Shown here one piece after another: positions 11,320-44,091 of a stretch of 47,042 bases of DNA. Both the position numbers and the translations under genes were made by a program. Origin of the DNA: Chloroflexota bacterium. GTDB lineage: Bacteria > Chloroflexota > Limnocylindria > Limnocylindrales > CSP1-4. The stretch is taken from NCBI GenBank assembly GCA_043743315.1, contig JAYTWS010000066.1, forward strand, positions 1 through 47,042. The letters are read 5' to 3'. Position 1 is the stretch's first letter. Every line of letters begins with the position of its first letter. Under the pieces are notes generated by a model that was not told the origin of the DNA, searched no databases, and worked only from the letters and a program-made list of their open reading frames with translations.

Positions 11320-12750
11320 TCAGACCGCGGGCGGCACGAACGGCTCGTAACCCGGCGCCACGATGGGCCACGGATGCGCCGCTTCCCAGCGCTCGGCGAC
11401 CCTGAGCAGCAGTTCGTCCCCGGAGCGCGGCCCGGTGACCTGGAGCCCGAACGGGATCCCGTTATCGGATAGTCCGGCCGGCAGCGTCACCGCGGGATGC
11501 CCCGTGACGTTCTGGAGAGCGGTCGAATAGGCCGACGGCGGAAGCATCGACCCCGCGGCACCGCCACCGGGGCGACCATCGGGCGTCCAGCCCTCGAGGG
11601 CGACGGTCGGGGTGAGGAGGAGACCGGCCTCGCCGAGGAGCAGATCCAGCTGGCGGATGTGCTCGAACCGGCGACGGCGCACGGCCAGGTATGCATCGAT
11701 CCCGACCGCGAGGCCATCGGAGAGGAACGCCCTGGCTGCCGGATGCATCCGATCGCGCCCGGCCTCGACCCACCCCCGGCCAAGCGACGCTACGTGCTCG
11801 GCCGTGGCAATCACGAACCAGTCGAGGTCCGGGTCACCGGTAGTGAAGAAGCTCCCGGGCTCGCGCCACTCGGCTTCAAGACCCACGATGTCGGCGAACG
11901 CCCGGACCGCGGCCTCGAACTGCGAGGCGAGCCGCGGCGGCAACGGTCCGAGGTCACTGGTTCGGTGAGCGGCGAACAGACGATCCAGCGGGCGGCCGTC
12001 GGCAGAACGGACTCCGAACGGAGCCGTCGCGGGATCGCCCGCCACTGGCCCCGACTCGACATCCAGGAGCCGCCTGAGGTCGGCGACCGTCGTCGCAAAC
12101 GGACCCGGCGTCGAGAAGTCGATCCAGTCGTGGGGCGGCCAGCGGCCGATCCGCCCGGTCGTCGGCTTGATCCCCACCAGTCCACAGAATGCCGCGGGAA
12201 TGCGGATCGACCCACCGCCGTCGGTCGCGGTTGCGACGGGCACAAGTCCTGCCGCGACGGCCGCCGCGGACCCGCCGCTCGATCCGCCCGGCGACCAGGC
12301 GAGGCCCCAGGGGTTCCGCGTGGGACCGAACAGGAGGTTATCCGTGTAGCCCTCGGTCGCAAACTCCGGCATGTTCGACTTGCCCACGACGATCGCGCCG
12401 GCGGCTCGCAGGCGGGCCGGAATCGTGCCGTCCTCGACCGCGAAGGAGGCGTCCGCGAACAACACGGAGCCGTGCGTGGTTCGCATCCCGGCGACGTTCT
12501 CGGAATCCTTGACCAGGACCGGTACCCCTGCGAGCGCGCCGGGGTCGCGGCCGCCAGCGGCGATCAGGTCATCCAGGGCATCGGCCTCCCGCAGCGCTTC
12601 GTCTGCCCGAAGTGCGACCACCGCACCGAGCGTCGGATTGTCCCGCTCGATTCGCGTCAGTGCCAGTTCAACGACCGAACGAGCGCGGCTCCGGCCCGAC
12701 CGCACCGCCTCGGCAACGGCCATGACGGCACCGGTCGGCGCGCGGGTCAC
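11320..12750 (-). CDS. Amidase (amidase-signature family)
   Basis: 476 aa. AS signature [43 protein letters not shown]. The GTG start overlaps the upstream stop (GTGA at 12747-12750). An internal ATG at 12723 is an alternative start. Confidence 0.85.
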
Positions 12751-13697
12751 CGCGCTGGACGCGTGAGTGCCAGGAGTCCCAGGAACTCGTAGGCGACGTT
12801 GGCCGCCGCGAGGGCGGTCAGCTCGGCATGGTCGTAGGCCGGCGCCACCTCTACGACGTCGGCGCCGACGATCGGGAGGCCCGCGAGGCCACGCAGGATG
12901 GCCTGCAGTTCCCGTGACGTGAGTCCGCCCGGCTCGGGCGTCCCGGTTCCCGGCGCATGCGCCGGGTCGAGAACATCGATATCCACGCTCAGGTAAACGG
13001 GAGCGTCACCCGCGCGGGTCCGGATACGCTCGATCGCCACGTCGACACCACCCCGGGCCACTTCCGTGGTCGAGATAATGGCGAAGCCCATCCCGGCGTC
13101 ATCGGCGAGGTCCGACGCCGCATATAGCGGGCCGCGGATGCCGACATGCGAGGAACGATCCACCGCGAGGAGTCCCTCCTCGAACGCTCGCCGGAACGGC
13201 GTGCCGTGCGTATACGGGGCGCCGAAGTACGTGTCCCAGGTATCCAGATGAGCGTCGAAGTGGACGAGCGCAACCGGACCGTGACGCGCATGGGCTGCCC
13301 GCAGCAGCGGGAGGGCGATGGTGTGGTCGCCGCCGAGGGCGACGATCACCTGGGCGGACCGCAGCGTCTCGTGCGCTACCGCTTCGATCTGGCCGATCGC
13401 CTCGAGAATGTCGAACGGATTGCAGGACACGTCGCCGGCGTCTGCCACCTGCTGGACGGTCCACGGCTCGACCTGGAGCCCGGGGTGGTACGGCCGCAGG
13501 AGCTTGGACCCGGCGCGGATCGCCGACGGGCCGAACCGCGCGCCCGGTCGATACGAGACCCCGGAGTCGAACGGGACGCCGAGGATGGCCACGGCCGACG
13601 AGCCGACATCCGCGAGGCGCGGCAGCCGGGCGAACGTATCTGGGCCAACGTAGCGGGGCCGAACCCTGCCGTCCGGCGCACCGATCGGATCGGTCAT
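12747..13697 (-). CDS. Ureohydrolase of the agmatinase/guanidino-acid hydrolase (arginase) family
   Basis: Metal-binding motifs [16 protein letters not shown] and [22 protein letters not shown] are present. Start at ATG 13697 ([10 protein letters not shown]...), overlapping the upstream stop (ATGA). The 75-aa extension in the ORF track is R/P-rich and looks non-coding. Confidence 0.85.
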
Positions 13698-14086
13698 GGC
13701 GCGGCCGAGAGGTGTTCGTGGACGCCGAGCCATCGACCGCTGAGCGTGCGCCGGAAGACGATCGTCTCCCGCTCCTGCAGGTCGTGCTCGCCGTCGGCGT
13801 CGCGGTTCCGCGTCGCCACATCGTGCGTGAACACGGCGATCCCGTCCTCGATGATCTGGACCCGACCATTGCTGGATCGACAGCCGAGGACGCGGAAACC
13901 CGCCTCCTCCCATGACCGCCACTCGGCCTCATACGCGGCCCGGGACGGCAGGAGCGCCGCGGTCGTGTAGAAGAGGAACGTGGCCTCGGGCGCGAACGCG
14001 TCGAAGTACGCCCCCACGTCGTGAGCGCCGAAGGCGGCGACCAGTCGGGCCGCCGCCTCCAGGACCTCGGATGTCCGATCGGTCAT
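13694..14086 (-). CDS. NTF2-like / SnoaL-like (DUF4440-type) small protein
   Basis: 130 aa with length and pattern typical of the NTF2-like fold (...[12 protein letters not shown]...[19 protein letters not shown]). It has ATGA overlaps on both sides. Confidence 0.6.
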
Positions 14087-15501
14087 GGGCGCTCGGCGGC
14101 CAGCCGCCGCTCACTCTCCGCGATGGCCACCTCTTCCGCGGCCAGATCGAGCGAGCGTGTGAGAGCGAAGTAGGCGCCGGCGGACACAACCAGCCCGACG
14201 ATCGCCGAGATGTCGACGCCTCCGACCGAACCAACGAGCGGTCCCGAGAAGTAGCCCGGGATCACGACGAACGGGTACATCGAGGCGAGCCCGATCGCGT
14301 ACGAGATCAGCCCTCGACGGCCCCAGGCGCCGTAGATCCCCTTCGGGGTCGCGAGGTCGGTGATCGCGTAGCGGCCCTTCCGGACGAAGAAGTAGTCGAC
14401 AAGGTTGATCGCTGTCCAGGGGATGATCAGGTAGAGCATCACGATCAGGCTGTTGAACAGCGCCGTGATCGCGTCGCCAGGCAGCTGGAAGGCGACAATC
14501 GTCCAGACGACCGCCAGAACGACGATCGTGATGACACGAATCTGCCGGGTGGGCTTGATCGCCACGACCGAGTCGATCGCCGTCACGGTGGAGAGCATGG
14601 CGCTGTACCCGTTGATGCCCATCGTCGCCACGAGGGCGCACACGGACAGGATCGCGAGGAGCGAGCCGAGGCCCCCGAAGACGGCGTTGCCGCCGTCGCT
14701 CAGCGCAACGAGCGCATCCGTCGCACCAAGGTTCGTGGCAAGCCATGCCCCGAGGGCGATGAGCCAGACGGCTGATCCCGCCGCGCCCAGGAACACCGAG
14801 AGCACGATCGGTCGCGTTGGCGTGCCCTTCGGCAGGTACCGCGAGTAGTCAGACACATAGGGCGCGTAGGTGATGTTGTACGCCGCGGCGGCCACGAACA
14901 TCGAGGCGAAGCCGGCCAGTGTGAACTCGCCTCCCGCCGCCGGCGTCCCGCCCGCATTCCCGGTCACGATCGCGATCGTCAGGATCACGTAGAACGGGAA
15001 CGAGACGAAGAAGAGCACGCGGAAGACCCTGTGCAGGAGGTCGTGACCATAAATGGCCAGGGCGGTCGCGATCACGGTCACGACGATCCCGACAACGATC
15101 GGATCGAGACCGAACAGCCCATTGATCCCGCCGTCGATCAGCATCACGTCGACGACATTGAAGAGCATGAACGTGACCAACGATCCGAAGAGAGCGATGA
15201 TGACGCCGCTGTAGCCGAGCTGGGCTCTCGACTGGATCATCTGGGGCAGGCCCAGATGCGGCCCCTGCGTGGCGTGGAACGCCATGAAGAGCGTGCCGAA
15301 GAGGATCCCGAGCGTGCCGGCCACGATCGTGTCCACGATCCCCAGGCCGAACACCGGTCCGAGGAAGCCGATTGAGATCGTGAAGAACTGGAAGTTCCCG
15401 AGGAACCAGAATGGCCCCTGCTGCCAGACTTTGCCATGTCGCTCGGATTCCGGGACGTAGTCGATCGAGCGCGCTTCGATGACGGTCGCTTGCTCAGCCA
15501 T
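14083..15501 (-). CDS. NCS1-family (purine-cytosine/hydantoin/allantoin type) permease
   Basis: 472 aa with about 12 TM segments. The N-terminal NCS1 hallmark is IDYVPESERHGKVWQQGPFWFLGNFQFFT. GAGGGAGG lies upstream of the ATG. Confidence 0.85.
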   Translation of the reverse strand: MAEQATVIEARSIDYVPESERHGKVWQQGPFWFLGNFQFFTISIGFLGPVFGLGIVDTIVAGTLGILFGTLFMAFHATQGPHLGLPQMIQSRAQLGYSGVIIALFGSLVTFMLFNVVDVMLIDGGINGLFGLDPIVVGIVVTVIATALAIYGHDLLHRVFRVLFFVSFPFYVILTIAIVTGNAGGTPAAGGEFTLAGFASMFVAAAAYNITYAPYVSDYSRYLPKGTPTRPIVLSVFLGAAGSAVWLIALGAWLATNLGATDALVALSDGGNAVFGGLGSLLAILSVCALVATMGINGYSAMLSTVTAIDSVVAIKPTRQIRVITIVVLAVVWTIVAFQLPGDAITALFNSLIVMLYLIIPWTAINLVDYFFVRKGRYAITDLATPKGIYGAWGRRGLISYAIGLASMYPFVVIPGYFSGPLVGSVGGVDISAIVGLVVSAGAYFALTRSLDLAAEEVAIAESERRLAAERP

Positions 15502-16435: not shown

Positions 16436-18226
16436 ATGAGCGCCGAATTCGACCTTCGCCTGTCGTCGACCGACGAGGCGGCCGTGATGGCTGTGGCTGA
16501 TCACGCGCGACGAAACAGCTGGGCCGAGCGCCTCATGGACCGCGACGTGACCCTCTGGTCAGACGACCCCGACGTGCAGCGCTCCATCGCAGATCGCCTC
16601 GGGTGGCTCGACGCCCCGGCCCATTTCACCGATCAGATCGCAGCCCTCGAGGGCTTCGGCGATGGCATTCGGGTGGCGGGCTTCCGGACGGCAGTCGTGA
16701 TGGGGATGGGCGGTTCGAGCCTGGCCCCGGAGGTCCTGCATCGGACCTTCGGCACCGCCGACGGGTACCTCGATCTCCGGGTCCTCGATTCCACCGATCC
16801 AGCAGCCGTTGCCGCCGTCGTCGACGACCTCGACCCGCTCTCAACCCTGTGGATCGTGGCATCGAAGTCGGGCACCACGACCGAACCGCTGGCTTTCCTG
16901 GCCGATGCCTGGGCGCGAATCGCCGACGCGCTGGCGGTGGCCGGCTCATCGCAGCAACCGGGCGAGTTCATCGTGGCCATCACCGATCCGGGAACGAGCG
17001 TCGGAGCGATCCCGCACCACGACGACCTTCGCGAGGTATTCCTCAATCCGCCCGACATCGGGGGCCGCTACGCCGCGTTGTCCTACGTCGGCCTCGTGCC
17101 TGCTTCCTTGATCGGGCTGGACCTCGATTCGCTGCTGGCGTCCGCCTCGATGATGGTCGCCGCAAGTCGAGAACCGGAGCCGCAGCGCAATCCGGCACTC
17201 CTGCTGGGGATTGCCCTCGGCGAGCTCGTACGACAGGGCCGGGACAAGTTGACGTTCATGATGGATCCGGCGCTCGCCAGCTTCGGGGCGTGGGCCGAGC
17301 AGCTGATCGCCGAGTCGACCGGCAAGCACGGCATCGGGATCGTTCCCGTCGATCGGGAACCACTTGGTGCCACTGACGCGTACGGCACGGATCGGGTGTT
17401 CGTGTCGATGGCCCTGACCGACTCGGCGGATCCATCGCACGGACTGCTCGATGCACTCGCTGCCGCCGGGCATCCCGTGATCCGACTGGTCCTCGATGAC
17501 CCGATGGACCTCGGCGCCGAATTCATCCGCTGGGAGGTGGCTACGGCGATCGCGGGCGCCGTCCTGGGCATCGACCCATTCGATCAGCCGAACGTCGAGG
17601 AGGCCAAGGAGCTGACCCGTCAGCTGCTCGCAGCCAAGGGGACCGCCGCCGGGCTCGCGGGCGCCGCCGGGCGCGCGGGTGCCGCCGGACGCGCGGGCGC
17701 CGCCGGACGCGCGGGTGCCGCCGGGCGCGCGGGTGCCGACTCGGTCGAGGATCCGATGCGCCCGCTCGACATCGAGTCAGTCGGGCAGGATGCCCTCATC
17801 GAAGCGATCCGAGCCGGACTCAGGAGCGATGCGCGCGCGGGCCATTACATGGCGATCCAGGCGTTCATTGCCCCGAACGACGCGGCCGATGCGACCTTCG
17901 AGCGGATCCGCGCCCTGGTCCGCGACCGAACCGGCATGGCCACGACCTCCGGCTACGGGCCACGCTTCCTCCACTCGACCGGCCAGTTGCACAAGGGAGG
18001 AGCGGCCACGGGCTGGTTCGTTCAGTTGATCTCGGCTCATCCGCTCGATCGCGAAATTCCCGGCTGGCCGTATACGTTCGGCGGCCTCATCGATGCCCAG
18101 GCTCAGGGCGATGCCGGTGCCATCTCATCTCACGACCTTCCAATCCTTCGCTTGCGGCTGGGCATCGACCGTGATGCCGACCTCGCCATGCTGGAGCGAG
18201 CCTTCGCCAAGGCGCTCAACGCCTAA
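16436..18226 (+). CDS. pgi: Glucose-6-phosphate isomerase (the PGI type often found fused to transaldolase)
   Basis: 596 aa. SIS-domain motifs VVMGMGGSSLAPEV and WIVASKSGTTTEPLAF are present. The N-terminus RDVTLWSDDP...LGWLD resembles the PGI half of Tal-PGI fusions. It carries an internal tandem-repeat insert. Confidence 0.85.
   Translation: MSAEFDLRLSSTDEAAVMAVADHARRNSWAERLMDRDVTLWSDDPDVQRSIADRLGWLDAPAHFTDQIAALEGFGDGIRVAGFRTAVVMGMGGSSLAPEVLHRTFGTADGYLDLRVLDSTDPAAVAAVVDDLDPLSTLWIVASKSGTTTEPLAFLADAWARIADALAVAGSSQQPGEFIVAITDPGTSVGAIPHHDDLREVFLNPPDIGGRYAALSYVGLVPASLIGLDLDSLLASASMMVAASREPEPQRNPALLLGIALGELVRQGRDKLTFMMDPALASFGAWAEQLIAESTGKHGIGIVPVDREPLGATDAYGTDRVFVSMALTDSADPSHGLLDALAAAGHPVIRLVLDDPMDLGAEFIRWEVATAIAGAVLGIDPFDQPNVEEAKELTRQLLAAKGTAAGLAGAAGRAGAAGRAGAAGRAGAAGRAGADSVEDPMRPLDIESVGQDALIEAIRAGLRSDARAGHYMAIQAFIAPNDAADATFERIRALVRDRTGMATTSGYGPRFLHSTGQLHKGGAATGWFVQLISAHPLDREIPGWPYTFGGLIDAQAQGDAGAISSHDLPILRLRLGIDRDADLAMLERAFAKALNA
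17645..17734 (+). repeat. In-frame tandem repeat inside pgi: 5 x 18 bp encoding (AAG[L/R]AG)5
   Basis: The unit gccgccggNcgcgcgggY occurs five times back to back. It translates to AAGLAG AAGRAG AAGRAG AAGRAG AAGRAG. (17645-16436) is divisible by 3. Confidence 0.9.
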
Positions 18227-18260
18227 GGGCCGGTCGCGGAGTCCGGGCGGCGGGGCGGCG

Positions 18261-18368
18261 CGCTGCCACGCCAGGCCCGGTGGACCCCCACGCTGCCACG
18301 GCAGGCGCACCGGACCCCCACGCTGCCACGCCAGGCCCGGTGGACCCCCACGCTGCCACGGCAGGCCC
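18261..18368. repeat. Tandem array of about 3.6 x 30 bp with alternating A/B variants (60-bp higher-order period)
   Basis: A=cgctgccacgccaggcccggtggaccccca (18261, 18321). B=cgctgccacggcaggcgcaccggaccccca (18291). A truncated B-like copy lies at 18351-18368. The array starts 35 nt after the pgi TAA. Confidence 0.9.
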
Positions 18369-18430
18369 GTCATTCGTCCGGCGTAAGAAGTCGACGTGAT
18401 GAGCCCTCGCGCGGTGGGCACCGTGTCGAT

Positions 18431-18603
18431 CTCGTACGTGGGGCGTATGAGATCGACGAATCACCGCCGCGAAGCTGTCTGCAGGTCGCTTGGCAAGCTC
18501 CGTTCCTAGGCCCGGCGTATGAACTGGCCGTTCTTCGGGCTCCATGCGTCAACTTCTTACGTGGCAGGTATGACGATGCGGGTTTCATACGTGGCGCGTA
18601 TGA
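18431..18603. promoter_or_regulatory. Three operator-like 19-21 bp palindromes (TCnTACG-N5-CGTATGA) plus half-sites in a lower-GC core
   Basis: The three sites are cTCGTACGtggggCGTATGAg (18431-18451), TCTTACGtggcagGTATGA (18555-18573) and TCATACGtggcgCGTATGA (18585-18603, perfect 7-bp arms). Half-sites are cggCGTATGA (18513-18522) and CGTAAGAAG (18382-18390). Confidence 0.45.
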
Positions 18604-18620
18604 AGGACGCAAGAGTGCCG

Positions 18621-18817
18621 AGCAGGCTGGCGCGCCGAGCAGGCTGGCGCGCCGGGCGGGAACCAAGGCGCCGCGCAGGCTGGCGCGCCGCGCAGGCTGG
18701 CGCGCCGCGCAGGCTGGCGCGCCGGGCGGGAACCAGGGCGCCGCGCAGGCTGGCGCGCCGGGCGGGAACCAGGGCGCCGGGCGGGAACCAAGGCGCCGGG
18801 CGGGAACCAGGGCGCGC
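18621..18817. repeat. Interleaved two-unit tandem array: X (17 bp) and Y (19 bp) in the order XXYXXXYXYYY
   Basis: X=NGCAGGCTGGCGCGCCG and Y=GGCGGGAACCARGGCGCCG. There are eleven contiguous units with no spacers. Periods of 17 and 19 bp are not multiples of 3. Confidence 0.9.
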
Positions 18818-18885
18818 GGGGAGCTGCCCAGGGAGTACCTCGTAGCCTCAGGTCACGCCGCTTCGGCGCAGGAACGGTCCGCGCG

Positions 18886-18891
18886 TAGACT
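18886..18891 (+). promoter_or_regulatory. -10-like hexamer TAGACT upstream of gnd
   Basis: gcGTAGACTTgg lies 61 nt before ATG 18953. A GGAGG Shine-Dalgarno follows. Confidence 0.35.
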
Positions 18892-18952
18892 TGGTGCAAG
18901 GTCGGCGGCTGCACATCAGTCGCGCCGCCACCTGCATCGGAGGCGTCGCGAC

Positions 18953-19852
18953 ATGCGCATCGGGTTCATCGGACTTGGCCGGATGGGGGCCAACATGTGC
19001 CGCCGGCTAATGCAGGACGGCCACCAGATCGTGGCCTACAACCGCAGCCCCGAGAAGACCCAGGAGCTCGCGACCGAGGGTGCCGAACCGTCGTTCTCGA
19101 TCGCCGAACTCGTGGGCAAGCTCGAGAAGCCTCGAACGGTCTGGATCATGGTCCCGGCGGGCGACGCCACGGAGGCCCAGATCGCGGAGCTGACGGCGCA
19201 CCTCGAACCGGGCGACACGATCGTCGACGGCGGCAACACGAACTTCCATGACGACGTCCGGCGCCACGCGGACCTCGCGAAGCAGGGCGTCCAGTACGTC
19301 GATGCCGGCGTATCCGGCGGGATCTGGGGCCTGAAGGTCGGCTTCTGTCTGATGGTCGGCGGCGAGGTGGCCGCGGCGACGCCCCTGGAGCCCGTCTTCC
19401 TGAGCCTCGCGCCCGAGGGCGGCTACATCCATGCCGGCCCGCCCGGCGCCGGCCACTACGTGAAGATGATTCACAACGGGATCGAGTACGGAATGATGCA
19501 GTCATACGCGGAGGGATTCGAGATCCTCCACGCCTCGGAGTACGACCTCGACCTGGCGGCCATCGCCGACAACTGGATGCATGGCAGCGTCGTCCGGAGC
19601 TGGCTGCTCGAGCTGCTAGGGCTCGCCTACAAGGGCCAGGGCCAGGACCTCGAGCACCTCAAGGGCTGGGTCGCCGATTCCGGCGAGGGCCGCTGGACCG
19701 TCCAGGAGGCGATTGATCGGGACGTCCCGGCGCCCGTCATCACGATCGCGCTGCAGACGCGGTTCCGTTCGCGCCAGGACGACAGCTACGGAGCCAAGGT
19801 CCTCGCGGCGCTGCGCAACGAGTTCGGCGGACACGCGGTCAAGAACAGCTGA
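18953..19852 (+). CDS. gnd: 6-phosphogluconate dehydrogenase, short decarboxylating form (about 300 aa)
   Basis: The Rossmann N-terminus is MRIGFIGLGRMGANM. VDGGNTNFHDD, DAGVSGGIWG and KMIHNGIEYGMMQSYAEGF match the Gnd family. Confidence 0.9.
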   Translation: MRIGFIGLGRMGANMCRRLMQDGHQIVAYNRSPEKTQELATEGAEPSFSIAELVGKLEKPRTVWIMVPAGDATEAQIAELTAHLEPGDTIVDGGNTNFHDDVRRHADLAKQGVQYVDAGVSGGIWGLKVGFCLMVGGEVAAATPLEPVFLSLAPEGGYIHAGPPGAGHYVKMIHNGIEYGMMQSYAEGFEILHASEYDLDLAAIADNWMHGSVVRSWLLELLGLAYKGQGQDLEHLKGWVADSGEGRWTVQEAIDRDVPAPVITIALQTRFRSRQDDSYGAKVLAALRNEFGGHAVKNS

Positions 19853-23581: not shown

Positions 23582-24499
23582 ATGGCGGTCCCGGATCGGT
23601 TCGTTCGGTCCCGGGACGGGACGCCCATCGCGGTCTTCTCGTCGGGGCCCCCGGGCAGGGCCGATGCCGGAGCCGGGCCAACGCCCGAAACGGGGCCCGG
23701 AGCCGGGCCAACGCCCGAAACGGGGCCCGGACCCGGAGCCCTTGCCCCGCCGGTGGTCCTGGTCCATGGAACGACTGCGGATCACCTGACGTTCCGGGTC
23801 GTCGCGCCGCTGCTCGGAACGCGATACCGCCTCCACGCCATCGATCGGCGCGGCCGGGGTGATTCGGGCGATGCACCGAACTCGTACACCGTCGAGCGCG
23901 AGTTCGAGGATGTCGCCGCGGTGGCGGACGCGATCGCCGCGGAGACCGGCGGGCCGGTCGACGTAGTGGGGCACTCCTTCGGTGGGCGCTGCGCGCTCGG
24001 GGCGGCGCTCCGGACAACCTCGATCCGCCGCGTGGTCTGCTATGAGGGTGCCCCGCCGGCTTCACGGGACCTTGCTTCGGCGTACGAGCCGCCCTGGCTC
24101 CTGCCCGCGCTCGCCGCCGATCTCGCAGACGGCGACCTCGAGGGTCTCCTTGAGCGGTTCATGCGAACCGTCGTGGGGATGGACGATGCGGGCATGGCCC
24201 GATTACAGGCGGACCCCGTGTGGCCCCTGCGGGTGGCGGCGGCACCGACGATCCTCCGGGAGCTCGCGGCATCGAACGATCACGCGGCAGGGCTCGATGC
24301 CCTCGGTGCAGTGACCATTCCGGTCCTCCAGATCCTGGGATCGGCCAGCTCCGCCGCATTCGCCCGTAATACGGCGGCACTCGATCGACGGCTCGCGCAC
24401 GGCTCGATCGTCCGCATCGGAGGCGCGGCGCACGCGGCGCACCACACGCATCCCTCCGAGTTCGTCGCCGATGTGGAGGCGTTCCTCGACGCGCCATGA
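23582..24499 (+). CDS. Alpha/beta-fold hydrolase
   Basis: 305 aa. It has VLVHGTTADH, the nucleophile elbow GHSFGG and a C-terminal GGAAHAAHHTHP block. It starts 4 nt after the pgl stop and carries an N-terminal tandem duplication. Confidence 0.8.
   Translation: MAVPDRFVRSRDGTPIAVFSSGPPGRADAGAGPTPETGPGAGPTPETGPGPGALAPPVVLVHGTTADHLTFRVVAPLLGTRYRLHAIDRRGRGDSGDAPNSYTVEREFEDVAAVADAIAAETGGPVDVVGHSFGGRCALGAALRTTSIRRVVCYEGAPPASRDLASAYEPPWLLPALAADLADGDLEGLLERFMRTVVGMDDAGMARLQADPVWPLRVAAAPTILRELAASNDHAAGLDALGAVTIPVLQILGSASSAAFARNTAALDRRLAHGSIVRIGGAAHAAHHTHPSEFVADVEAFLDAP
23669..23728 (+). repeat. In-frame perfect 2 x 30 bp tandem duplication (GAGPTPETGP x2) in the hydrolase N-terminus
   Basis: ggagccgggccaacgcccgaaacggggccc is repeated exactly. 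(23669-23582) is divisible by 3. Confidence 0.9.
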
Positions 24500-25042: not shown

Positions 25043-26167
25043 ATGACCGATCGACCATCGACGGCGCCGGCCGAGGCCCCGACCTACCCGTACTCCCCCG
25101 GGCTCGAGGGCGTCCCAGCCGCCGAGTCGGCGCTCGGCTATGTGGACGGCGCTGCGGGTCGGCTGACCTACCGCGGCTACCGGATCGGGGACCTCGTCGA
25201 GCATGGCACGTATCCCGCCGTTGCCAACCTGCTATGGACCGGCGACTGGGAGCCGAGCCACCACCTGGCGACCTCGGCGGTGCCCGCCGCGGTCATGACT
25301 GCGCTTCGGGCCCTGCCGACGTGGGCGAAGCCGATGGACGCCCTTCGAACCGCTGTGTCGGTCTGGGGTGCCACCCAGGTCCTCGAGTGGCCGCCGAGCG
25401 CAGAGCAGGCGCGGGCGCTCACGTCGTTCTCGCCGTCTGCCCTCGCGGCGTTCTCCCGGCTGCGTCAGGGTCTTGAGCCGATCGCGCCAGATCCCGACCT
25501 CGATCTGGTGCCCGGCTACCTCTACCAGCTCACCGGATCGCGCGCCGACGCCAGCACCGCCCGCGCCCTCGATGCGTACTTCGTCGTCGGGGCCGAGCAC
25601 GGGCTCAACGCATCGACCTTCGCGGCCCGCGTCATCACCTCCACCCGGAGCGACATCGCGTCCGCCGTCGGCGGCGCCATCGGCGCCATGAAGGGGCCGC
25701 TGCATGGCGGAGCCCCATCCGAGGTCGTCGAGCAGCTCCACAAGGTCGGTTCGCCCGAGCGCGCGGAGCAGTGGGTCCGGGACGCCATCGATCGAGGCGA
25801 GCGCCTCATGGGTTTCGGGCATCGTGTCTACCGCGCTTACGACCCCCGAGCCGCCGCCCTGCGCAAGGTCGTCGAGGCCATGGACCACAAGCCCGACTGG
25901 CTCGACCTCGCGATCAAGGTCGAGGATGTCGCCCTCCGGGTCCTTGCCGAGAAGCATCCGGATCGACCGCTCAAGACGAACGTCGAGTATTACGCGGCGG
26001 CGGTCCTCCAAGGGGTGGGCCTCACGCCGGATCTCTTCCCGGCGACGTTCGCGCTCGCGCGCCATGCCGGCTGGACCGCCCACATCATCGAGCAGGCCAC
26101 CGACAACCGGCTCATCCGCCCGAACGCGATCTACACCGGCCCGGCCGAGCGCGACCTCCCCGCCTGA
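25043..26167 (+). CDS. Citrate synthase family protein (short ~375 aa form, citrate/2-methylcitrate synthase type)
   Basis: YSPGLEGVPAAESALGYVDG..LTYRGY, GAEHGLNASTFAARV, GPLHGGA, GFGHRVYRAYDPRA and NVEYY are catalytic His/Asp contexts of citrate synthases. Confidence 0.9.
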   Translation: MTDRPSTAPAEAPTYPYSPGLEGVPAAESALGYVDGAAGRLTYRGYRIGDLVEHGTYPAVANLLWTGDWEPSHHLATSAVPAAVMTALRALPTWAKPMDALRTAVSVWGATQVLEWPPSAEQARALTSFSPSALAAFSRLRQGLEPIAPDPDLDLVPGYLYQLTGSRADASTARALDAYFVVGAEHGLNASTFAARVITSTRSDIASAVGGAIGAMKGPLHGGAPSEVVEQLHKVGSPERAEQWVRDAIDRGERLMGFGHRVYRAYDPRAAALRKVVEAMDHKPDWLDLAIKVEDVALRVLAEKHPDRPLKTNVEYYAAAVLQGVGLTPDLFPATFALARHAGWTAHIIEQATDNRLIRPNAIYTGPAERDLPA

Positions 26168-26170
26168 CCG

Positions 26171-27451
26171 TCAGCCGGCCTCTTCGGCCTCGACGATCGC
26201 CACCTGTGCGGCCAACCCGGCAGCCGGCGAGGCATGGCGCGGCGAACGGTCCCGGCGCCGCGCCACCGCGACCCCGCCGATGAGCAGCGTCGCCGCGCCG
26301 AGGAAGAACGGTGCCGGCAGCCCCGCCTGGACCACGACCGCCCCAAGCACAGGGCCCACGATTCCGGCGGCATACAGAGGCAGGTACACGAGGTTAAGCG
26401 TCTGGCTTCGGCGCTCCGGCGACACCTCGGTCGCGAGCAGGCTGAAGACCATCGCCGACGTTGACGACACACAGGCGGCGAAGACGACCGCCACGAGCGC
26501 AAGCAATCCGATGCCCCCGACCTGCGGGGCCAATGGCATGGCAACGAGCGCCAGTCCCCCCACGAACAGGGCCCAGACGAGGATCTGTCGATAGCCCAGT
26601 CGATCGCCGAGCGCGCCGACCAACGGGGCGAGGAGCGCACCTGCCAGCGCCGCTGTGCCCGCAACGAGCGCAATGCCGCTGGCCAGGCCCGGGCCGCGGC
26701 CCGTGATGCTCTCGACGACCACCGGCACGTACGGCCGCGACATCTGGTTGGCCAGGAACGCGGTCCCGAAGATCAGGAAGATGCCGCGGACGGCGCCGTC
26801 GGACAGGACACCCCGCACCGCACCGAAGGCCAGGGTCAGGACGCGCCCCTCCGGGACGACCTCGGGCCGAACCTCGCGCGATCCGAACGCGACGAGGAGC
26901 GCCGTTCCGACCGAGAGCGCGGCGGACACCGCGAACACGCCGCTGAGGGACCACCCGAGGCCGTCGATCAAGATCCCGGCGAGCGTCGGGCCAACGGCGA
27001 AGCCGATCGGTCCGGATGCGCCGAAGATCGCGATGACGGTCCCGATCCGGGCCTTGGGCGCCGCGTCACGAATGCCGCCCAGCATGACCCCGGTGTTGCC
27101 GAGCTGAAATCCGATGAGCAGGATGCTGACCGCCACGTGCCACGGCTCGGTGGCGAGCGCCATGCCCAGGAACACCACGGCCTCGACGAGCGCGCTCCGG
27201 ACGATGACGGCCTTGCGGCTGTACTTGTCCGCCCACACGCCCCAGAGCGGGACGAGCGGCATACCGAGGACGAACAGCAAGGCGCTGAACAACCCGATGA
27301 AGGAGAGTCGATCGGCATCGGGCACCCCGATCGCCGACAGCTGTGATGGTAGAAGGGCGAAGACCTGGCTGACCCCGAGTCCCTCGACCATGGACGTGAC
27401 CCAGAACACCGCGACCAGCGGGATCCAGGAGCGAGAGGACGATGTCGGCAT
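26171..27451 (-). CDS. MFS transporter (12-TM type)
   Basis: 426 aa, uniformly hydrophobic. It has the MFS loop motif GVWADKYSRK. Confidence 0.85.
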   Translation of the reverse strand: MPTSSSRSWIPLVAVFWVTSMVEGLGVSQVFALLPSQLSAIGVPDADRLSFIGLFSALLFVLGMPLVPLWGVWADKYSRKAVIVRSALVEAVVFLGMALATEPWHVAVSILLIGFQLGNTGVMLGGIRDAAPKARIGTVIAIFGASGPIGFAVGPTLAGILIDGLGWSLSGVFAVSAALSVGTALLVAFGSREVRPEVVPEGRVLTLAFGAVRGVLSDGAVRGIFLIFGTAFLANQMSRPYVPVVVESITGRGPGLASGIALVAGTAALAGALLAPLVGALGDRLGYRQILVWALFVGGLALVAMPLAPQVGGIGLLALVAVVFAACVSSTSAMVFSLLATEVSPERRSQTLNLVYLPLYAAGIVGPVLGAVVVQAGLPAPFFLGAATLLIGGVAVARRRDRSPRHASPAAGLAAQVAIVEAEEAG

Positions 27452-39972: not shown

Positions 39973-40590
39973 CAGGTCGCCGGGTCGGTTCACGTCCAGG
40001 ATCGTGGTGCCGGCTGGGTCCAGGCTCAGCCAGACCGGCGTCGGGATGGCCGACGCTCCGAGCTCGGTGAGCAGGGCGTGAAGTGACCGCTCCCCTCGTC
40101 CGAGCAACGACGCCACCGCGGCCCGAGCGAGCTCGACGTCGATGGCCATCGGCAACGGCTGGACCCGTCGGGGCACCTCCAGGTTCACGGCGGCGCGACC
40201 GGATCCCACGGTCGAGGCAAGTCGCTTGAGGACCGCTGCCACCATCCTGGGCATATCACCGGCCACGACCAGGGCGACCGGCGTCTCGACGGCGTCGAGG
40301 GCGTTTGAGAGCGCGGCCAGCGGGCCGTCGAACGGCGTGGCGTCATGCACGACCTGGATCGAGCGACTGCCGCCCGGCGGCCGCCGAGGTCCAGCGCCGG
40401 ATCCGGCTGACTCGGGCGCCAGGACCAGGATGATCCGCGGGGCCACGCTCGCCAGGACGTCGACCGCGTGGTCCAGCATCGGCCTCCCGTCGATCTCGAA
40501 GGCCAGTTTGTCCGAGCCGAAGCGTGAGGATCGACCGCCCGCGAGGACGATTCCGGTGACGTCATCGAGCATCGGTACAGCCTGCATCAT
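39964..40590 (-). CDS. mobA: Molybdenum cofactor guanylyltransferase (MobA-like)
   Basis: GIVLAGGRSSRFGSDKL...DGRPML... and GPLAALSNAL...VVAGDMP fit MobA. Start at ATG 40590, overlapping the selB stop (ATGA at 40587-40590). The longer tracked ORF to 40998 is antisense to selB. Confidence 0.8.
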   Translation of the reverse strand: MMQAVPMLDDVTGIVLAGGRSSRFGSDKLAFEIDGRPMLDHAVDVLASVAPRIILVLAPESAGSGAGPRRPPGGSRSIQVVHDATPFDGPLAALSNALDAVETPVALVVAGDMPRMVAAVLKRLASTVGSGRAAVNLEVPRRVQPLPMAIDVELARAAVASLLGRGERSLHALLTELGASAIPTPVWLSLDPAGTTILDVNRPGDLRG

Positions 40591-42548
40591 TTCGCGACCT
40601 CCGGTTCGCGCGGCGCTCGAGGTCCCGGCACGTGGCCGGCCGGCGTCCGGACGAGGATCCCCCGCCGGTTGAGGTCCTCGATGAGTGGCATCACGTAGCG
40701 GCGGCTCGTGCTCGTCGCGTCGCGCAGGGCGGACGGCGTCAGCGGCTCGCGTCGCGCGATCGAAAGGGCAATCCCCGCGAGCCGGTGGAATGCCGGTGTG
40801 GCCCAGGCCATGTCCGCTTCGACCCGGACGATTCGTCCGGCCGCCTCGAGCGCTCGAACACCCTCGGGAGGGCAGCCTGCAGCCTGTGCCGCCGAGGCCA
40901 GCGTCGGGGGAGCCGCGACGTCGAGCGCGGCCTCGAGGCGATCCATCGCCGAGGCCAGAGCGGCTGGCATCGTTGGTGCACGGTTCGGATCCCGCCATCG
41001 ATCGCGATCCCGCGCGAGCGTGCCTCGCTGAACGAGACCATCCAGGACTCCGTCGATGGCCCGATCCACGCCTGTGGATTCGTCGCGACGGACTGTGACG
41101 AGGCGACGTAGCGTCGCGCGCAGACGCTGACGGAGCGCTGCGGTCGGGACGCCCGGCTCCACCGATTGCAGCGCGTGGAAGTCGCCCACGATCGTGAGGG
41201 CCGCGTTCTCCAGCTCGGTCTCGACATCCGGCGCCAGGACCAGTCCGTGGGGGCCCTGCCGTTCGACCCTTCCGGCCAGCGCCAATGCCGCGGTGACCCG
41301 CTCGATCCGATCGGCGCCGAGCATGCCGTGCAGGCCGACCAGCGCATCTGCGGCGGCATCGGCATCGCCAACGCCAACGGCTGCGGCCAGCGCGGCCATC
41401 CGTTCCGGTGTGGCACGCCGACGAGCGGTCCCGCGGGCGGGGTCCGCATCGAGAATCTCGAACCCGGCCACGACATCGCCCGGCGACGGCCGGCGGGCAA
41501 TGCCCCGGTCGCCGACGAAGGTCGCGATGGGCTCGGCGAGCCGGACGATCGCGGTCACGCGCCCATCCGGCAGGTCCTGGGCGTCACGGCCACGCCGCCC
41601 GAGCACGCCATCGACCTGGGCCGTCCCGAGATGGATCCGGACCCGGGCGTCGTCAAGTGGTGGCCACGCGGGACGCCTGCCCCTTCCCGTGCGGCCATCG
41701 ATGCGCGCCGGTGGTCGCAGTGCGATGAGGGCGCGGGACGTGGCCTCGACTCCGGGGCCCCAGGTCGCCACCACGCCGCGCCGGACGTCGCCGAGTTCCG
41801 CCCCCGCAAGGTTGATCGCCACGCGGCCGGGTGGCGCCGATTCCGTTGGCCCGTGATGGATGTGGGCGCCTCGAATGCGGACCTGCCTGCCGCCCGGTTC
41901 GAGCCGCAGTCCATCGCCGACCCGGAGCTCGCCGCCGCGCAGTGACCCGGTCACGACGAGGCCCCGGCCGCGGACCACGAACGCACGATCCACCGCCAGC
42001 CGGCCGGGCCCACCGACTCCGACGGCCTGCTCCACGGCCACGCGGTCGCGAATGGCCAGGAGTGCGGCGCGCAGGTCATCGAGGCCAGCGCCGGTCACGG
42101 ACGAGACCGCAAGGACCGAGGCGCCGGCGAGGCTCGTTCGGGCCACCAACTGCGCGGTCTCGGCGACGACCTCGGACGCCCGCTCCGGATCGACGACGTC
42201 GGATTTCGTCACGACCACGATGCCGGCGCGCAGTCCGAGCGCGTCGATGAGCTCGAGGTGCTCGATCGTCTGGGCCCGCGGTCCATCGTCGGCTGCGACG
42301 ACCAGCATCACCGCGTCGATTTCGCCCGCCCCGACGAGCATGTTGCCGATCAGCGCGTCGTGTCCTGGCACGTCGACGAAGTCGAGCGACGTTCCATCGC
42401 CAACATCGAGGTGGGCATATCCGATGTCGATCGTCATGCCACGGCGCTGCTCCTCGGGCAGCCGGTCGGCATCGATACCGGTCAGCGCACGGAGGAGCGT
42501 CGTCTTGCCATGATCGATGTGCCCGGCGGTGCCGATGACGACGGTCAT
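40587..42548 (-). CDS. selB: Selenocysteine-specific translation elongation factor SelB
   Basis: The GTPase motifs are GTAGHIDHGKTTL, DVPGH and TKSD. The long C-terminal extension is consistent with mRNA-binding winged-helix domains. It lies immediately downstream of selA. Confidence 0.9.
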   Translation of the reverse strand: MTVVIGTAGHIDHGKTTLLRALTGIDADRLPEEQRRGMTIDIGYAHLDVGDGTSLDFVDVPGHDALIGNMLVGAGEIDAVMLVVAADDGPRAQTIEHLELIDALGLRAGIVVVTKSDVVDPERASEVVAETAQLVARTSLAGASVLAVSSVTGAGLDDLRAALLAIRDRVAVEQAVGVGGPGRLAVDRAFVVRGRGLVVTGSLRGGELRVGDGLRLEPGGRQVRIRGAHIHHGPTESAPPGRVAINLAGAELGDVRRGVVATWGPGVEATSRALIALRPPARIDGRTGRGRRPAWPPLDDARVRIHLGTAQVDGVLGRRGRDAQDLPDGRVTAIVRLAEPIATFVGDRGIARRPSPGDVVAGFEILDADPARGTARRRATPERMAALAAAVGVGDADAAADALVGLHGMLGADRIERVTAALALAGRVERQGPHGLVLAPDVETELENAALTIVGDFHALQSVEPGVPTAALRQRLRATLRRLVTVRRDESTGVDRAIDGVLDGLVQRGTLARDRDRWRDPNRAPTMPAALASAMDRLEAALDVAAPPTLASAAQAAGCPPEGVRALEAAGRIVRVEADMAWATPAFHRLAGIALSIARREPLTPSALRDATSTSRRYVMPLIEDLNRRGILVRTPAGHVPGPRAPREPEVAK

Positions 42549-42554
42549 CGACGA

Positions 42555-43976
42555 TCAGCCGCCGAGGGCGCGGGCGATCGCATTGGCGAGTTCGTGATCC
42601 GTCGCCGGATCGACGGTCCGGAGATCCAGGACGACCCGATCATGCTCGATCCGGGCGATCACGCAGGGGTCCCCGGCGCGGAGGGCCGCGAGGAGGGCCG
42701 CGGCCGTTCGGCCCGCGGCGGGAGCTAGCGTCACGCCGGACGACGGGATCGATTGACCCGGCACCGAACCGCCACCCACCGTTGCCTCGAGGTCCGCAGG
42801 CCCCGCTGCGCGCGCCGGCAGGTGTGAAACGAGGGCCTCAGCGCGCGCCCGAAGCTCGGCCACGGTCATTCCGAGCATCCGCCAGATGGGGATGTCCGCC
42901 TGCGCCCGGCCGCCGCGATACAGCGCGAGGGTCGCCGCGACGCCGGCGAGGATCGTCTTGTCGGGCCGCATCGCCCGAGCGAGCGGATCGCGACGCAGCC
43001 GGGCGACGAGATCGGCTCGGCCCACGATCAAGCCGGCCTGCGGCCCGCCGACAAGCTTGTCGCCAGAGAACGTGACGATGTCGGCACCCGCTGCCAGCCG
43101 CTCGCCCGGCATCGGCTCATGGGCGAGGCCGACTCGCTCGGTCGGGAGCAGGGCGCCGCTCCCGAGATCGTCGATGACGATCGCACCGTGACGATGCGCC
43201 AACTCGGCCAGGTCGGCCGGGTCGGGTGCTTCGACGAACCCGGTCTGGACGAAATTCGAGGGATGGACCCGCAGGACGGCGCGGATCCTGGACTTGGGAT
43301 CGTCGAGAACCGCTTGGAAGTCCGCGACTCGCGTCCGATTCGTCGTACCTACCTCGACGAGGCGGACGCCGGCCCGGTGCAGGATCTCGGGGATTCGCAC
43401 GCCTCCGCCGATCTCGATCAGCTCGCCTCGTGAAACGGCCACGCCACCACCGCGACCTGCCAGGCCCACGGCGAGCGCGATCGCCGCTGCGTTGTTGGTG
43501 ACGACCATCGCGTCCTCGGCGCCGGTGAGTGCGATGAGATGGTCCTCGCCCGCACGATCGCGCCGTCCGCGCCGGCCCGTGGCGCGATCCAGCTCCAGGA
43601 GCGTTGGGCCCTGAGCCGCCAGGCGCGCGGCCTCGATCGCAGCGTCGGGCCACCCAGCGCGGCCAAGATTCGTGTGGACGATGACGCCGGTCGCGTTGAT
43701 CACGTGCGTCTTGGCGTGCATGCCGGCTGCAGCGCCTGGCGGCCCATCGAAGGCCTCGAGCGCGGCCACGAGCTGCGCGCCGAGCGCCTCGGCCGTACGG
43801 ACCGACGCCCCTTGCCGGATCCGGGTTCGCTCGTCATCGATGACGGCCCGCGCCACCACCAGGATGGCATCCGGGTCCCGCATGCCGGCCAGCGGCCGAG
43901 CGGCCACGAGGACTCGCTCGACACTCGGCGGGTTCCGGCGCGGGCTGGAGGCGGTGGCGACGGACTTCGCGGCCAA
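42555..43976 (-). CDS. selA: L-seryl-tRNA(Sec) selenium transferase SelA
   Basis: PSVERVL occupies the position of the N-terminal SelA motif. INATGVIVHTNLGRA and FSGDKLVGGPQAG (PLP-Lys context) are present. I chose the start at TTG 43976, 4 nt after AGGAGG. The tracked ORF start at 44087 lies inside the tRNA gene. Confidence 0.9.
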   Translation of the reverse strand: MAAKSVATASSPRRNPPSVERVLVAARPLAGMRDPDAILVVARAVIDDERTRIRQGASVRTAEALGAQLVAALEAFDGPPGAAAGMHAKTHVINATGVIVHTNLGRAGWPDAAIEAARLAAQGPTLLELDRATGRRGRRDRAGEDHLIALTGAEDAMVVTNNAAAIALAVGLAGRGGGVAVSRGELIEIGGGVRIPEILHRAGVRLVEVGTTNRTRVADFQAVLDDPKSRIRAVLRVHPSNFVQTGFVEAPDPADLAELAHRHGAIVIDDLGSGALLPTERVGLAHEPMPGERLAAGADIVTFSGDKLVGGPQAGLIVGRADLVARLRRDPLARAMRPDKTILAGVAATLALYRGGRAQADIPIWRMLGMTVAELRARAEALVSHLPARAAGPADLEATVGGGSVPGQSIPSSGVTLAPAAGRTAAALLAALRAGDPCVIARIEHDRVVLDLRTVDPATDHELANAIARALGG

Positions 43977-43994
43977 GGGGCCTCCTGTGGATCG

Positions 43995-44091
43995 TGGCGG
44001 GAGCGCGTGGGAGTCGAACCCACCGCGCGACGCCAAGCGCCGCGCCACCGGTTTTGAAGACCGGACCGGGCACCGGCCCGAACCCACTCCC
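43995..44091 (-). tRNA. selC: tRNA-Sec (anticodon UCA)
   Basis: The reverse complement reads GGGAGTGG-GT-TCGGGC-CGGT-GCCCGG-T-CCGGT-CTTCAAA-ACCGG-(24-nt GC-rich extra arm)-GTGGG-TTCGACT-CCCAC-GCGCTCCC-G-CCA, 97 nt in total. The D stem is 6 bp with a 4-nt loop. The UCA anticodon sits in a CU-UCA-AA loop. The variable arm is long and the T arm is 5 bp. The acceptor stem is 8 positions with one G-U pair and one G-G mismatch, and CCA is encoded. selA and selB lie directly downstream. Confidence 0.85.

Follow-up and report, generated by a model that had tools for sequence, protein, structure and literature searches.

The DNA stretch analyzed here (the window; 47,042 nucleotides of contig JAYTWS010000066.1, assembly GCA_043743315.1) comes from a Limnocylindrales-like member of Chloroflexota. 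The relatives found through its 6-phosphogluconate dehydrogenase are metagenome-assembled genomes of Chloroflexota, many of them labelled Limnocylindrales. The window includes a pentose-phosphate gene cluster, in which the pgi gene for glucose-6-phosphate isomerase (16436-18226, plus strand; Pfam PGI, with named homologs annotated as glucose-6-phosphate isomerase) is followed by a gnd-like gene for 6-phosphogluconate dehydrogenase (18953-19852, plus strand; Pfam NAD_binding_2 and 6PGD). The latter is the first gene of gnd-zwf-opcA-pgl, the other members of which encode glucose-6-phosphate dehydrogenase, OpcA, and 6-phosphogluconolactonase according to Pfam. The gene for transketolase and rpiB are located further upstream. 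The 726-bp spacer between pgi and gnd (18227-18952) contains an array of five palindromic sites, and this array is the subject of the present analysis.

The array is a non-coding module of 234 bp (18370-18603) with five dyads, herein referred to as s1 to s5. Each dyad has the form TCATACG-N5-CGTATGA, that is, 19 bp with 7-bp arms and a 5-bp GC-rich center. No strand is assigned to the module, its dyads and tags, or the repeats next to it. Three palindromes had been pointed out in a sequence-only reading of the window, and all of them are present: s2 (18432-18450, TCGTACG-TGGGG-CGTATGA, TCGTACGTGGGGCGTATGA), which that reading had placed at 18431-18451, s4 (18555-18573, TCTTACG-TGGCA-GGTATGA, TCTTACGTGGCAGGTATGA), and s5 (18585-18603, TCATACG-TGGCG-CGTATGA, TCATACGTGGCGCGTATGA). 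As claimed there, s5 has perfect 7-bp arms and lies 30 bp past s4, a distance found in all arrays described below. The additional half-sites that had been listed exist as sequences, but both are in fact degenerate full dyads. One is s1 (18370-18388, TCATTCG-TCCGG-CGTAAGA, TCATTCGTCCGGCGTAAGA), located 62 bp before s2 as in all the other arrays, and the other is s3 (18504-18522, TCCTAGG-CCCGG-CGTATGA, TCCTAGGCCCGGCGTATGA), located 51 bp before s4. In an orthologous array (L292) both are nearer to the consensus than in the window, with TCATACG..CGTAAGA at s1 and TCATAGG..CGTATGA at s3. The start-to-start spacing of the five dyads in the window is 62, 72, 51, and 30 bp, which leaves gaps of 43, 53, 32, and 11 bp.

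The dyads are accompanied by short tags, including AGTCGACG on the right of s1 (18389-18396) and GCGTCAACT on the left of s4 (18546-18573 together with the dyad). Additionally, some of the units are parts of longer inverted repeats. The repeat around s2 (18425-18457, arms GTCGATCTCGTACG and CGTATGAGATCGAC) has 14-nt arms that are 93% complementary, and its stem reaches up to TGTC. The dyad s1 with its tag and the dyad s4 with its tag form a 39-nt inverted repeat with 74% complementarity, and s5 lies outside of it. No similarity between s4 and s5 was found outside the dyad itself.

Five copies of the arm 7-mer had been considered improbable by chance, and the counts bear this out. The pattern TACGTGGNNNGTATGA with at most 2 mismatches has 4 matches in the 47-kb window, all in the array, versus 0.24 expected, and a count of 4 was reached in 0 of 100 shuffles. 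The 7-mer CGTATGA occurs 7 times in the window versus 1.9 times expected, and four of these seven occurrences are within the array. With at most 1 mismatch over the 12 outer arm positions, the array sites were the sole matches in 1.29 Mb of sequence (the window and 81 related loci). Over 8 arrays, 228 of 280 arm pairs are complementary. The core of the array has 59-66% GC, versus 77-86% GC in the tandem repeats on both sides. To our knowledge, the consensus sequences of Rex, CRP, LexA, and similar regulators do not match the dyads.

Eight closer genomes were reached through PGI homologs of 84-89% identity. The retention of the palindromes in related spacers, which the sequence-only reading had proposed to check, was found in part of them only. 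An orthologous pgi-gnd array with the spacing of 62, 72, 51, and 30 bp is present in three of the eight (L292, L296, and L297), whereas the other five (L290, L291, L293, L294, and L295) have pgi-gnd spacers of 37-151 bp without the array. It is also absent from the pgi-gnd spacer of 81 more distant relatives. The synteny of pgi and gnd is widespread among the latter, usually with a spacer of only 12-70 bp, and expanded spacers were found only in the nearest genomes (L005, 113 bp; L002, 160 bp; L004, 495 bp; L003, 606 bp). In total, the array was found at pgi-gnd in 4 of 9 close genomes, including the window, and in 0 of the 81 further syntenic relatives. In the PGI tree, carriers are mixed with non-carriers, so the array has been gained or lost repeatedly.

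The array is under purifying selection and changes more slowly than synonymous sites. A stretch of 235 bp was aligned without any indel across the window, L292, L296, and L297 (alignment A2), while both flanks are rich in indels. Among these four orthologs, invariant columns make up 70% of the whole array, 76% of the dyads, and 66% of the inter-site DNA. The corresponding values for pgi are 47% at four-fold sites (52% in the 3′ third) and 89-91% at codon positions 1 and 2. Divergence of pgi is uneven between the window and L292 (16436-18226 versus L292:6510-8291), with a four-fold identity of 0.55-0.62 in the middle of the gene and 0.86-0.89 in its 3′ third. This suggests a recombination tract, perhaps including the spacer, and a part of the array conservation between the window and L292 may reflect recent recombination or low local divergence.

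Further occurrences of the palindromes, the absence of which would have spoken against a functional array, were found in unrelated spacers of related soil Chloroflexota, on other high-GC contigs. A scan of metagenomes with TCNTACGTGGNNNGTATGA gave 6 true loci among the 120 matches listed, most of which are chance single sites. Among the matches listed, five high-GC contigs have 4-5 TCATACG-N5-CGTATGA dyads in a spacing similar to that of the window. Two of these arrays have spacings of 62, 61, 52, and 30 bp (L125) and 62, 62, 51, and 30 bp (L199). A third one, L113, is the mirror image of L125 and the same array by sequence. The remaining two, L104 and L121, have the same architecture with a decayed third site; the same site is a perfect TCATACG..CGTATGA in the pgi-gnd array of L296. 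Neither pgi nor gnd was found on any of the other array contigs.

The neighbors of these copies differ from locus to locus, and the copies are mostly located after gene ends. In L104, the array is located between rpoD and a convergent XRE-family gene. In this XRE-family open reading frame (ORF), the final six codons and the stop are provided by the dyad s1 (L104:2395-2413), as if the 3′ end of the gene had been remodelled by the insertion. In L121, the array lies between a membrane-protein ORF and a convergent ArsC-family gene. The array of L125 lies 60 bp beyond the stop codon of a gene for acyl-CoA dehydrogenase, and that of L199 is near a gene for luciferase-like monooxygenase and is followed by tandem repeats. 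Single units were found in L139, in an 85-bp spacer between co-directional genes, and in L002. In a small sample of about nine placements, there are three between convergent genes and five or six between co-directional genes or at a 3′ end, with no case between divergent genes.

The contigs L125 and L199 come from one metagenome, and the nearest matches of the L125 acyl-CoA dehydrogenase are proteins with Limnocylindrales or Chloroflexota in their names. The copies thus come from the bacterial group to which the window belongs. Relatives of this locus, with dehydrogenases 95, 92, and 89% identical to that of L125, do not have the array. Thus, both presence and absence of the array were observed at two loci, pgi-gnd and acyl-CoA dehydrogenase. 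Comparison of filled and empty sites revealed no clear target-site duplication or terminal repeats.

Perfect 7-N5-7 palindromes of any sequence are not enriched in the sampled region (40, versus 29-35 for other spacer lengths), so this class of palindromes is not abundant there. Three detectors of arrays that did not depend on the arm sequence, namely summed palindrome score, 6-mer clustering, and a 4-of-5 architecture search, were too noisy or too insensitive at 70% GC. The 88 viral contigs that contain a perfect TCATACG-N5-CGTATGA each have just one low-GC chance site and no array, and an origin from phages was rejected. No arrays were found in the plasmid collection, which had just two short chance matches in Ralstonia.

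The architecture of the module is fixed from locus to locus. In six independent arrays, the distance from s1 to s2 is always 62 bp and that from s4 to s5 is always 30 bp. The distance from s2 to s4 is 101, 103, 113 (three times), or 123 bp. At 10.2-10.3 bp per turn, the intervals correspond to about 3, 5, 6, and 7 helical turns, with successive units about 6, 6-7, 5, and 3 turns apart. The changes of length in steps of about 10 bp fit a face-of-helix constraint on protein-bound DNA. In the alignment of paralogous arrays (alignment A1; copies in L104, L121, L125/L113, and L199), dyads 1, 2, 4, and 5, the tags, and the spacing are conserved, and the other inter-site DNA is variable. The tags are specific to their positions: [T/C]GAC was found on the right of s1 in 7 of 7 TCATACG arrays, with CGAC invariant in alignment A1, GTCG on the left of s2 in 6 of 7, and GTC[G/A] on the left of s4 in 7 of 7. 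Within the TCATACG family, parallel changes have turned the left arm into TGATACG at s1, s2, and s5 (L296, L297, and L104).

Arrays that share the 7-N5-7 geometry and have other arm sequences were found in relatives as well. The pgi-gnd spacer of L004 (L004:9607-9818) has five dyads of the GCTTGCA type (TTGC-N7-GCAA) with a spacing of 62, 50, 51, and 30 bp, and GTCG/TCGAC tags flank s2 and s5 of this array. The single unit of L002 (L002:1437-1455) is also of the GCTTGCA type and is orthologous to the first unit of L004. A second array in L004 (L004:19306-19490) is composed of TGGAACG-N5-CGTTCCA dyads, flanked by GATC..GATCGAC in the same way as s2 of the window. It is located between convergent genes for citrate synthase and an MFS transporter, the orthologs of which in the window (25043-26167 and 26171-27451) are just 3 bp apart. 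Between two co-directional genes, L044 (L044:3176-3501) contains seven TTGCTCG-TGGGG-CGAGCAA units, arranged as a tandem array with a period of 51 bp. This tandem array may be young, with spacers that have not yet diverged. Accordingly, the arms are altered together, and the scaffold that carries them is conserved.

The rest of the pgi-gnd spacer is occupied by tandem repeats and by the presumed start signals of gnd. The left repeat (18261-18369, 30 bp, 3.6 copies) has a different copy number in L292 and varies among the orthologs. The repeats on the right (18617-18820, units of 17, 19, and 36 bp) also vary among the orthologs, and L296 and L297 either lack them or have different ones. Assemblies of short reads break inside these right-hand repeats, as observed for L001 (ENA contig, 1747 bp) and for L292 (end at 8810). 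The array is therefore perhaps under-represented in public contigs. Downstream of the repeats, the hexamer TAGACT (18886-18891, plus strand), within CCGCGCGTAGACT, resembles a -10 element and is a putative part of the gnd promoter. The element CCGCGCGTAGACT is common to L002, L003, L004, L005, L290, L291, L296, and L297, so it is kept where the array is not. The ribosome-binding site of gnd (GGAGG, 18939-18943, plus strand), within CATCGGAGGCG, is also kept in the relatives and precedes the ATG at 18953. When the spacer was compared with those of the relatives by short-word BLAST, the TAGACT and ribosome-binding site regions were the only conserved parts. Scans of 18100-19100 for promoter and terminator consensus sequences found nothing.

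Several further features of the window were noted. In general, this genome is prone to short tandem repeats. One of them, inside pgi, has in-frame units of 18 bp (17644-17738, 5.3 copies, 83-90% GC), and PGI varies in length among close relatives (578 to 603 aa). A 30-bp tandem repeat (23667-23736, 2.3 copies, 97% matches) is located at the 5′ end of an alpha/beta-hydrolase ORF. Between rpiB and DUF4389-pgi, genes for an amidase, an arginase-family enzyme, and a cytosine/purine-type permease were found on the minus strand (11320-15501). In the close relatives L290, L292, and L294, rpiB, DUF4389, and pgi are adjacent (DUF4389 is absent in L290), so this block of three genes looks inserted in the lineage of the window. 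Additionally, the window has a selenocysteine set, with tRNA-Sec (43999-44091, minus strand, 74 bits), selA (within 42555-44087), and selB (40587-42548).

The array had been interpreted as a cooperative binding array for a dimeric helix-turn-helix regulator, with a carbohydrate or redox regulon expected. The symmetry of the dyads and their helical phasing on one face of the DNA agree with a series of protein dimers, whereas a gene-specific operator does not agree with the distribution. It is true that the array is upstream of gnd in a pentose-phosphate gene cluster, that it has been kept in three orthologous spacers, and that it evolves slower than synonymous sites. In contrast, five of the eight closest relatives and 81 others keep the same operon and the TAGACT and ribosome-binding site region and lack the array. 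Moreover, the distance from s5 to TAGACT is not fixed, with values of 283 bp (window), about 150 bp (L296), and about 90 bp (L297), and no gene for a DNA-binding regulator was found within about 16 kb, a weak ribbon-helix-helix ORF at 1546-1821 being the only hit. The regulon is not seen either: the other copies adjoin rpoD and XRE-family, ArsC-family, acyl-CoA dehydrogenase, and luciferase-like genes, and two of them lie between convergent pairs, where no promoter is expected. Control of gnd-zwf-opcA-pgl or pgi by a regulator bound to this array is accordingly quite unlikely, and the module is not a dedicated operator of pentose-phosphate genes. Also improbable, if somewhat less so, is a structured RNA, in which the module would be the 3′ untranslated region of pgi, an intercistronic RNA, or a small RNA acting by hairpins in 3′-end protection, termination, or as a protein sponge. 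The plus strand folds better than its shuffles (-117.8 kcal/mol, z = -4.5), 5 of the 83 pairs in the RNAalifold consensus have double changes, and the module is downstream of ORFs like transcribed REPs, the repetitive extragenic palindromes (PMC3733652). The conserved inter-site sequence of the orthologs also fits an RNA, and the longer inverted repeats around s2 and between s1 and s4 would fit any structural role of the nucleic acid. However, the minus strand folds nearly as well (z = -4.0), no hairpin is followed by a U-tail, and no match to Rfam was found in 18150-19000 at the gathering threshold or at E ≤ 1, with tRNA-Sec as the sole match in the window. The TGGGG/CCCCA center was found in either orientation relative to the array, and the window and L125 differ in how the array is oriented to the upstream gene. 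The arm variants are mostly uncompensated, in particular the A/T changes at arm position 3, which have no matching change within the dyad, and the mismatches have no wobble bias (11 GT, 5 AC, and 36 other), which favors recognition of half-sites on DNA over an RNA hairpin. The spacing in steps of 10 bp has no rationale in RNA. Thus, protein-bound DNA is favored, with this quantization weighed most heavily, and an RNA or a cruciform is kept as a live alternative.

Two further explanations require no binding protein. In the window, the frame of gnd is open over the whole 726-bp spacer (242 stop-free codons upstream of the ATG), and the dyads would be read in it as repeated peptides [LF][VLI]RG[AR]Y[ED] of an N-terminal extension or a small protein. 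This reading is refuted, and its remaining probability is negligible: the frame closes 22-48 codons before the ATG in L002-L005, none of the frames stays open over the array in every one of the four orthologs, the variable columns lack 3-periodicity (23/29/18), and the ATG and the ribosome-binding site at 18953 are conserved. The stop-free frame is judged to be a product of chance helped by the GC-rich repeats. The second explanation is a non-functional by-product, in which tandem duplication and quasi-palindrome template switching in a repeat-prone spacer would have generated chance palindromes. The tandem repeats on both sides of the array, the abundance of such repeats in the genome, and the young-looking 51-bp tandem array of a palindromic unit in L044 point in this direction, and template switching could yield symmetric changes of the arms. 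Against it, the similarity of s4 and s5 is limited to the dyad, homologous five-unit arrays were found at at least 5 unrelated loci, the array is free of indels over four lineages between flanks full of them, and it evolves slower than four-fold sites. We regard an origin of this kind as highly improbable.

On balance, we favor, with some reservation, the explanation that the array is a portable, selectively maintained, and probably protein-binding mosaic of palindromic units, similar to REPs and to bacterial interspersed mosaic elements (BIMEs). Like these, the array is composed of short imperfect palindromic units, which are found alone, as pairs, or as regularly spaced mosaics. Both are intergenic and lie mainly after ORFs with unidirectional or convergent neighbors, both have several sequence families of one geometry, and both are patchy among relatives. 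Both also have a short conserved motif outside of the stem, which in the array is [C/T/G]GTCG. Tagged palindromic repeats of the GTAG and CGTC (also TGTC) super-families occur as single, dimeric, or clustered units (PMC3733652). Most of them were found past the ends of ORFs, where the neighboring genes are unidirectional or convergent, with several families per genome (Di Nocera et al., 2013; PMC3733652). The CGTC repeats have 4-5-nt loops and 8-9-bp stems starting with A/T pairs, and they have no dedicated transposase; for Chloroflexi, only GTAG repeats and not CGTC repeats were reported (PMC3733652). The array differs from REPs by its 7(-8)-bp and relatively AT-rich arms, by the absence of a CCA tail, and by a single five-unit architecture that all loci retain, in which the spacing changes by steps of 10 bp. 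This invariant and helically phased architecture goes beyond what is known of REP clusters.

Several observations weigh against this explanation. The inter-site DNA of the orthologs is nearly as conserved as the dyads, which is not expected from a pure protein-site model. The plus strand folds well, and a few compensatory changes keep the arms paired (L296 s5, TGATACG..CGTATCA; L297 s1R/s2L; L296 s4R/s5L), so the module may instead act as an RNA or a cruciform. The tag [C/T/G]GTC[G/A] is 2-4 nt away from the 7-bp arm, whereas the REP tag is directly at the stem. No gene for a transposase, a REP-associated tyrosine transposase (RAYT), or a binding protein was found beside any copy in the flanks examined. 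The copy number looks modest, with a single array in the 47 kb of the window and few among 1.1 Mb of related loci, most of which cover the same region, while classical REPs exceed 100 copies per genome (PMC2817692). Finally, judging from the sequence alone, the array may still have a local effect on the regulation of gnd in the lineages that carry it.

Other known systems share only some properties with the module. Phased operator arrays include pairs of NrdR boxes about 3 turns apart, the five NtrC sites upstream of glnAp2, and the three 15-bp dyads TTGYAW-N3-WTRCAA of Ss-LrpB from the Lrp/AsnC family. Such arrays and the module both have 15-19-bp dyads separated by integral helical turns, with several dimers expected on one face. 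In contrast, the operator arrays are fixed in the regulated promoter and conserved with the gene, while the module moves among unrelated spacers, some of them between convergent genes, and is dispensable at each locus. Subsites of Tn3/gamma-delta res differ in half-site spacing, and the sites of Tn7 and Mu are not palindromic. The accessory sites of such recombinases and the multi-site ends of such transposons resemble the module in having several binding repeats spaced at fixed distances over 100-250 bp, which together form one higher-order complex on portable DNA. Unlike them, the module was not found with a recombinase or transposase gene, a pair of terminal inverted repeats, or a target duplication. 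The mycobacterial interspersed repetitive units (MIRUs) are intercistronic tandem repeats between co-directional operon genes. Only the 30-bp and 17/19-bp repeats flanking the array, with their variable copy number, are similar to MIRUs; the five-dyad core is not tandem, and its length is constant.

The literature search for the arm sequence returned only the box of DriD, a WYL-family activator, and it has a different geometry. This box, ATACGAC-N7-GTCGTAT, occurs singly in promoters (PMC13004042). It shares with the dyads the ATACG/CGTAT core and the neighboring GAC/GTC, a lead at the level of a 5-mer coincidence, and the geometry fails, with ATACG half-sites 11 bp apart in the DriD box versus 5 bp in the array dyads. 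A CRISPR array was rejected, given the 19-bp units, the gaps of 43, 53, 32, and 11 bp, the spacers conserved in the orthologs, and the absence of cas genes. In comparison with miniature inverted-repeat transposable elements, the 39-nt inverted repeat does not include s5, and no clear target duplication was found.

Finally, a sigma-54 enhancer, Tn3 res, parS/NBS, and an intrinsic terminator were set aside for reasons of wrong geometry, absence of a U-tail, or missing partner genes.

If the array is a protein-binding mosaic, each unit would bind a dimer of one sequence-specific protein, and the phasing would set all the dimers on one face of the DNA, probably giving a wrapped or looped nucleoprotein complex. 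Such a complex might act at gene ends in the manner of REP/BIME clusters. At the locus analyzed here, it could act as a topological or transcriptional barrier that separates pgi from the gnd operon with its own putative promoter. Alternatively, it could be a cis-site for copying of the module. More tentatively, and with considerable doubt, the module may represent an undescribed class in Limnocylindria: portable phased modules of five dyads that build a multi-dimer complex at gene ends, as a chromosomal insulator, a topological barrier, or a cis-site for copying, with arms re-coded in concert between lineages (TCATACG, TGATACG, GCTTGCA, TGGAACG, and TTGCTCG) on a scaffold of tags and spacing, which would imply binding proteins that co-evolve with them.

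In practical terms, caution is needed in taking such arrays for operators of the adjacent operon, and the repeats beside the array account for assembly breaks in the spacer. If the favored explanation is true, the five dyads, the integral helical turns, and the indels in 10-bp steps would argue for a protein-DNA machine rather than for simple hairpins. The module would then be a well-structured case outside Proteobacteria for what repeats of the REP/BIME type do and how they spread, as well as a natural system in which the arms of binding sites change together on a fixed scaffold. As for the organisms themselves, uncultured Chloroflexota of soil and freshwater would then have a family of intergenic modules that are mobile and maintained by selection.

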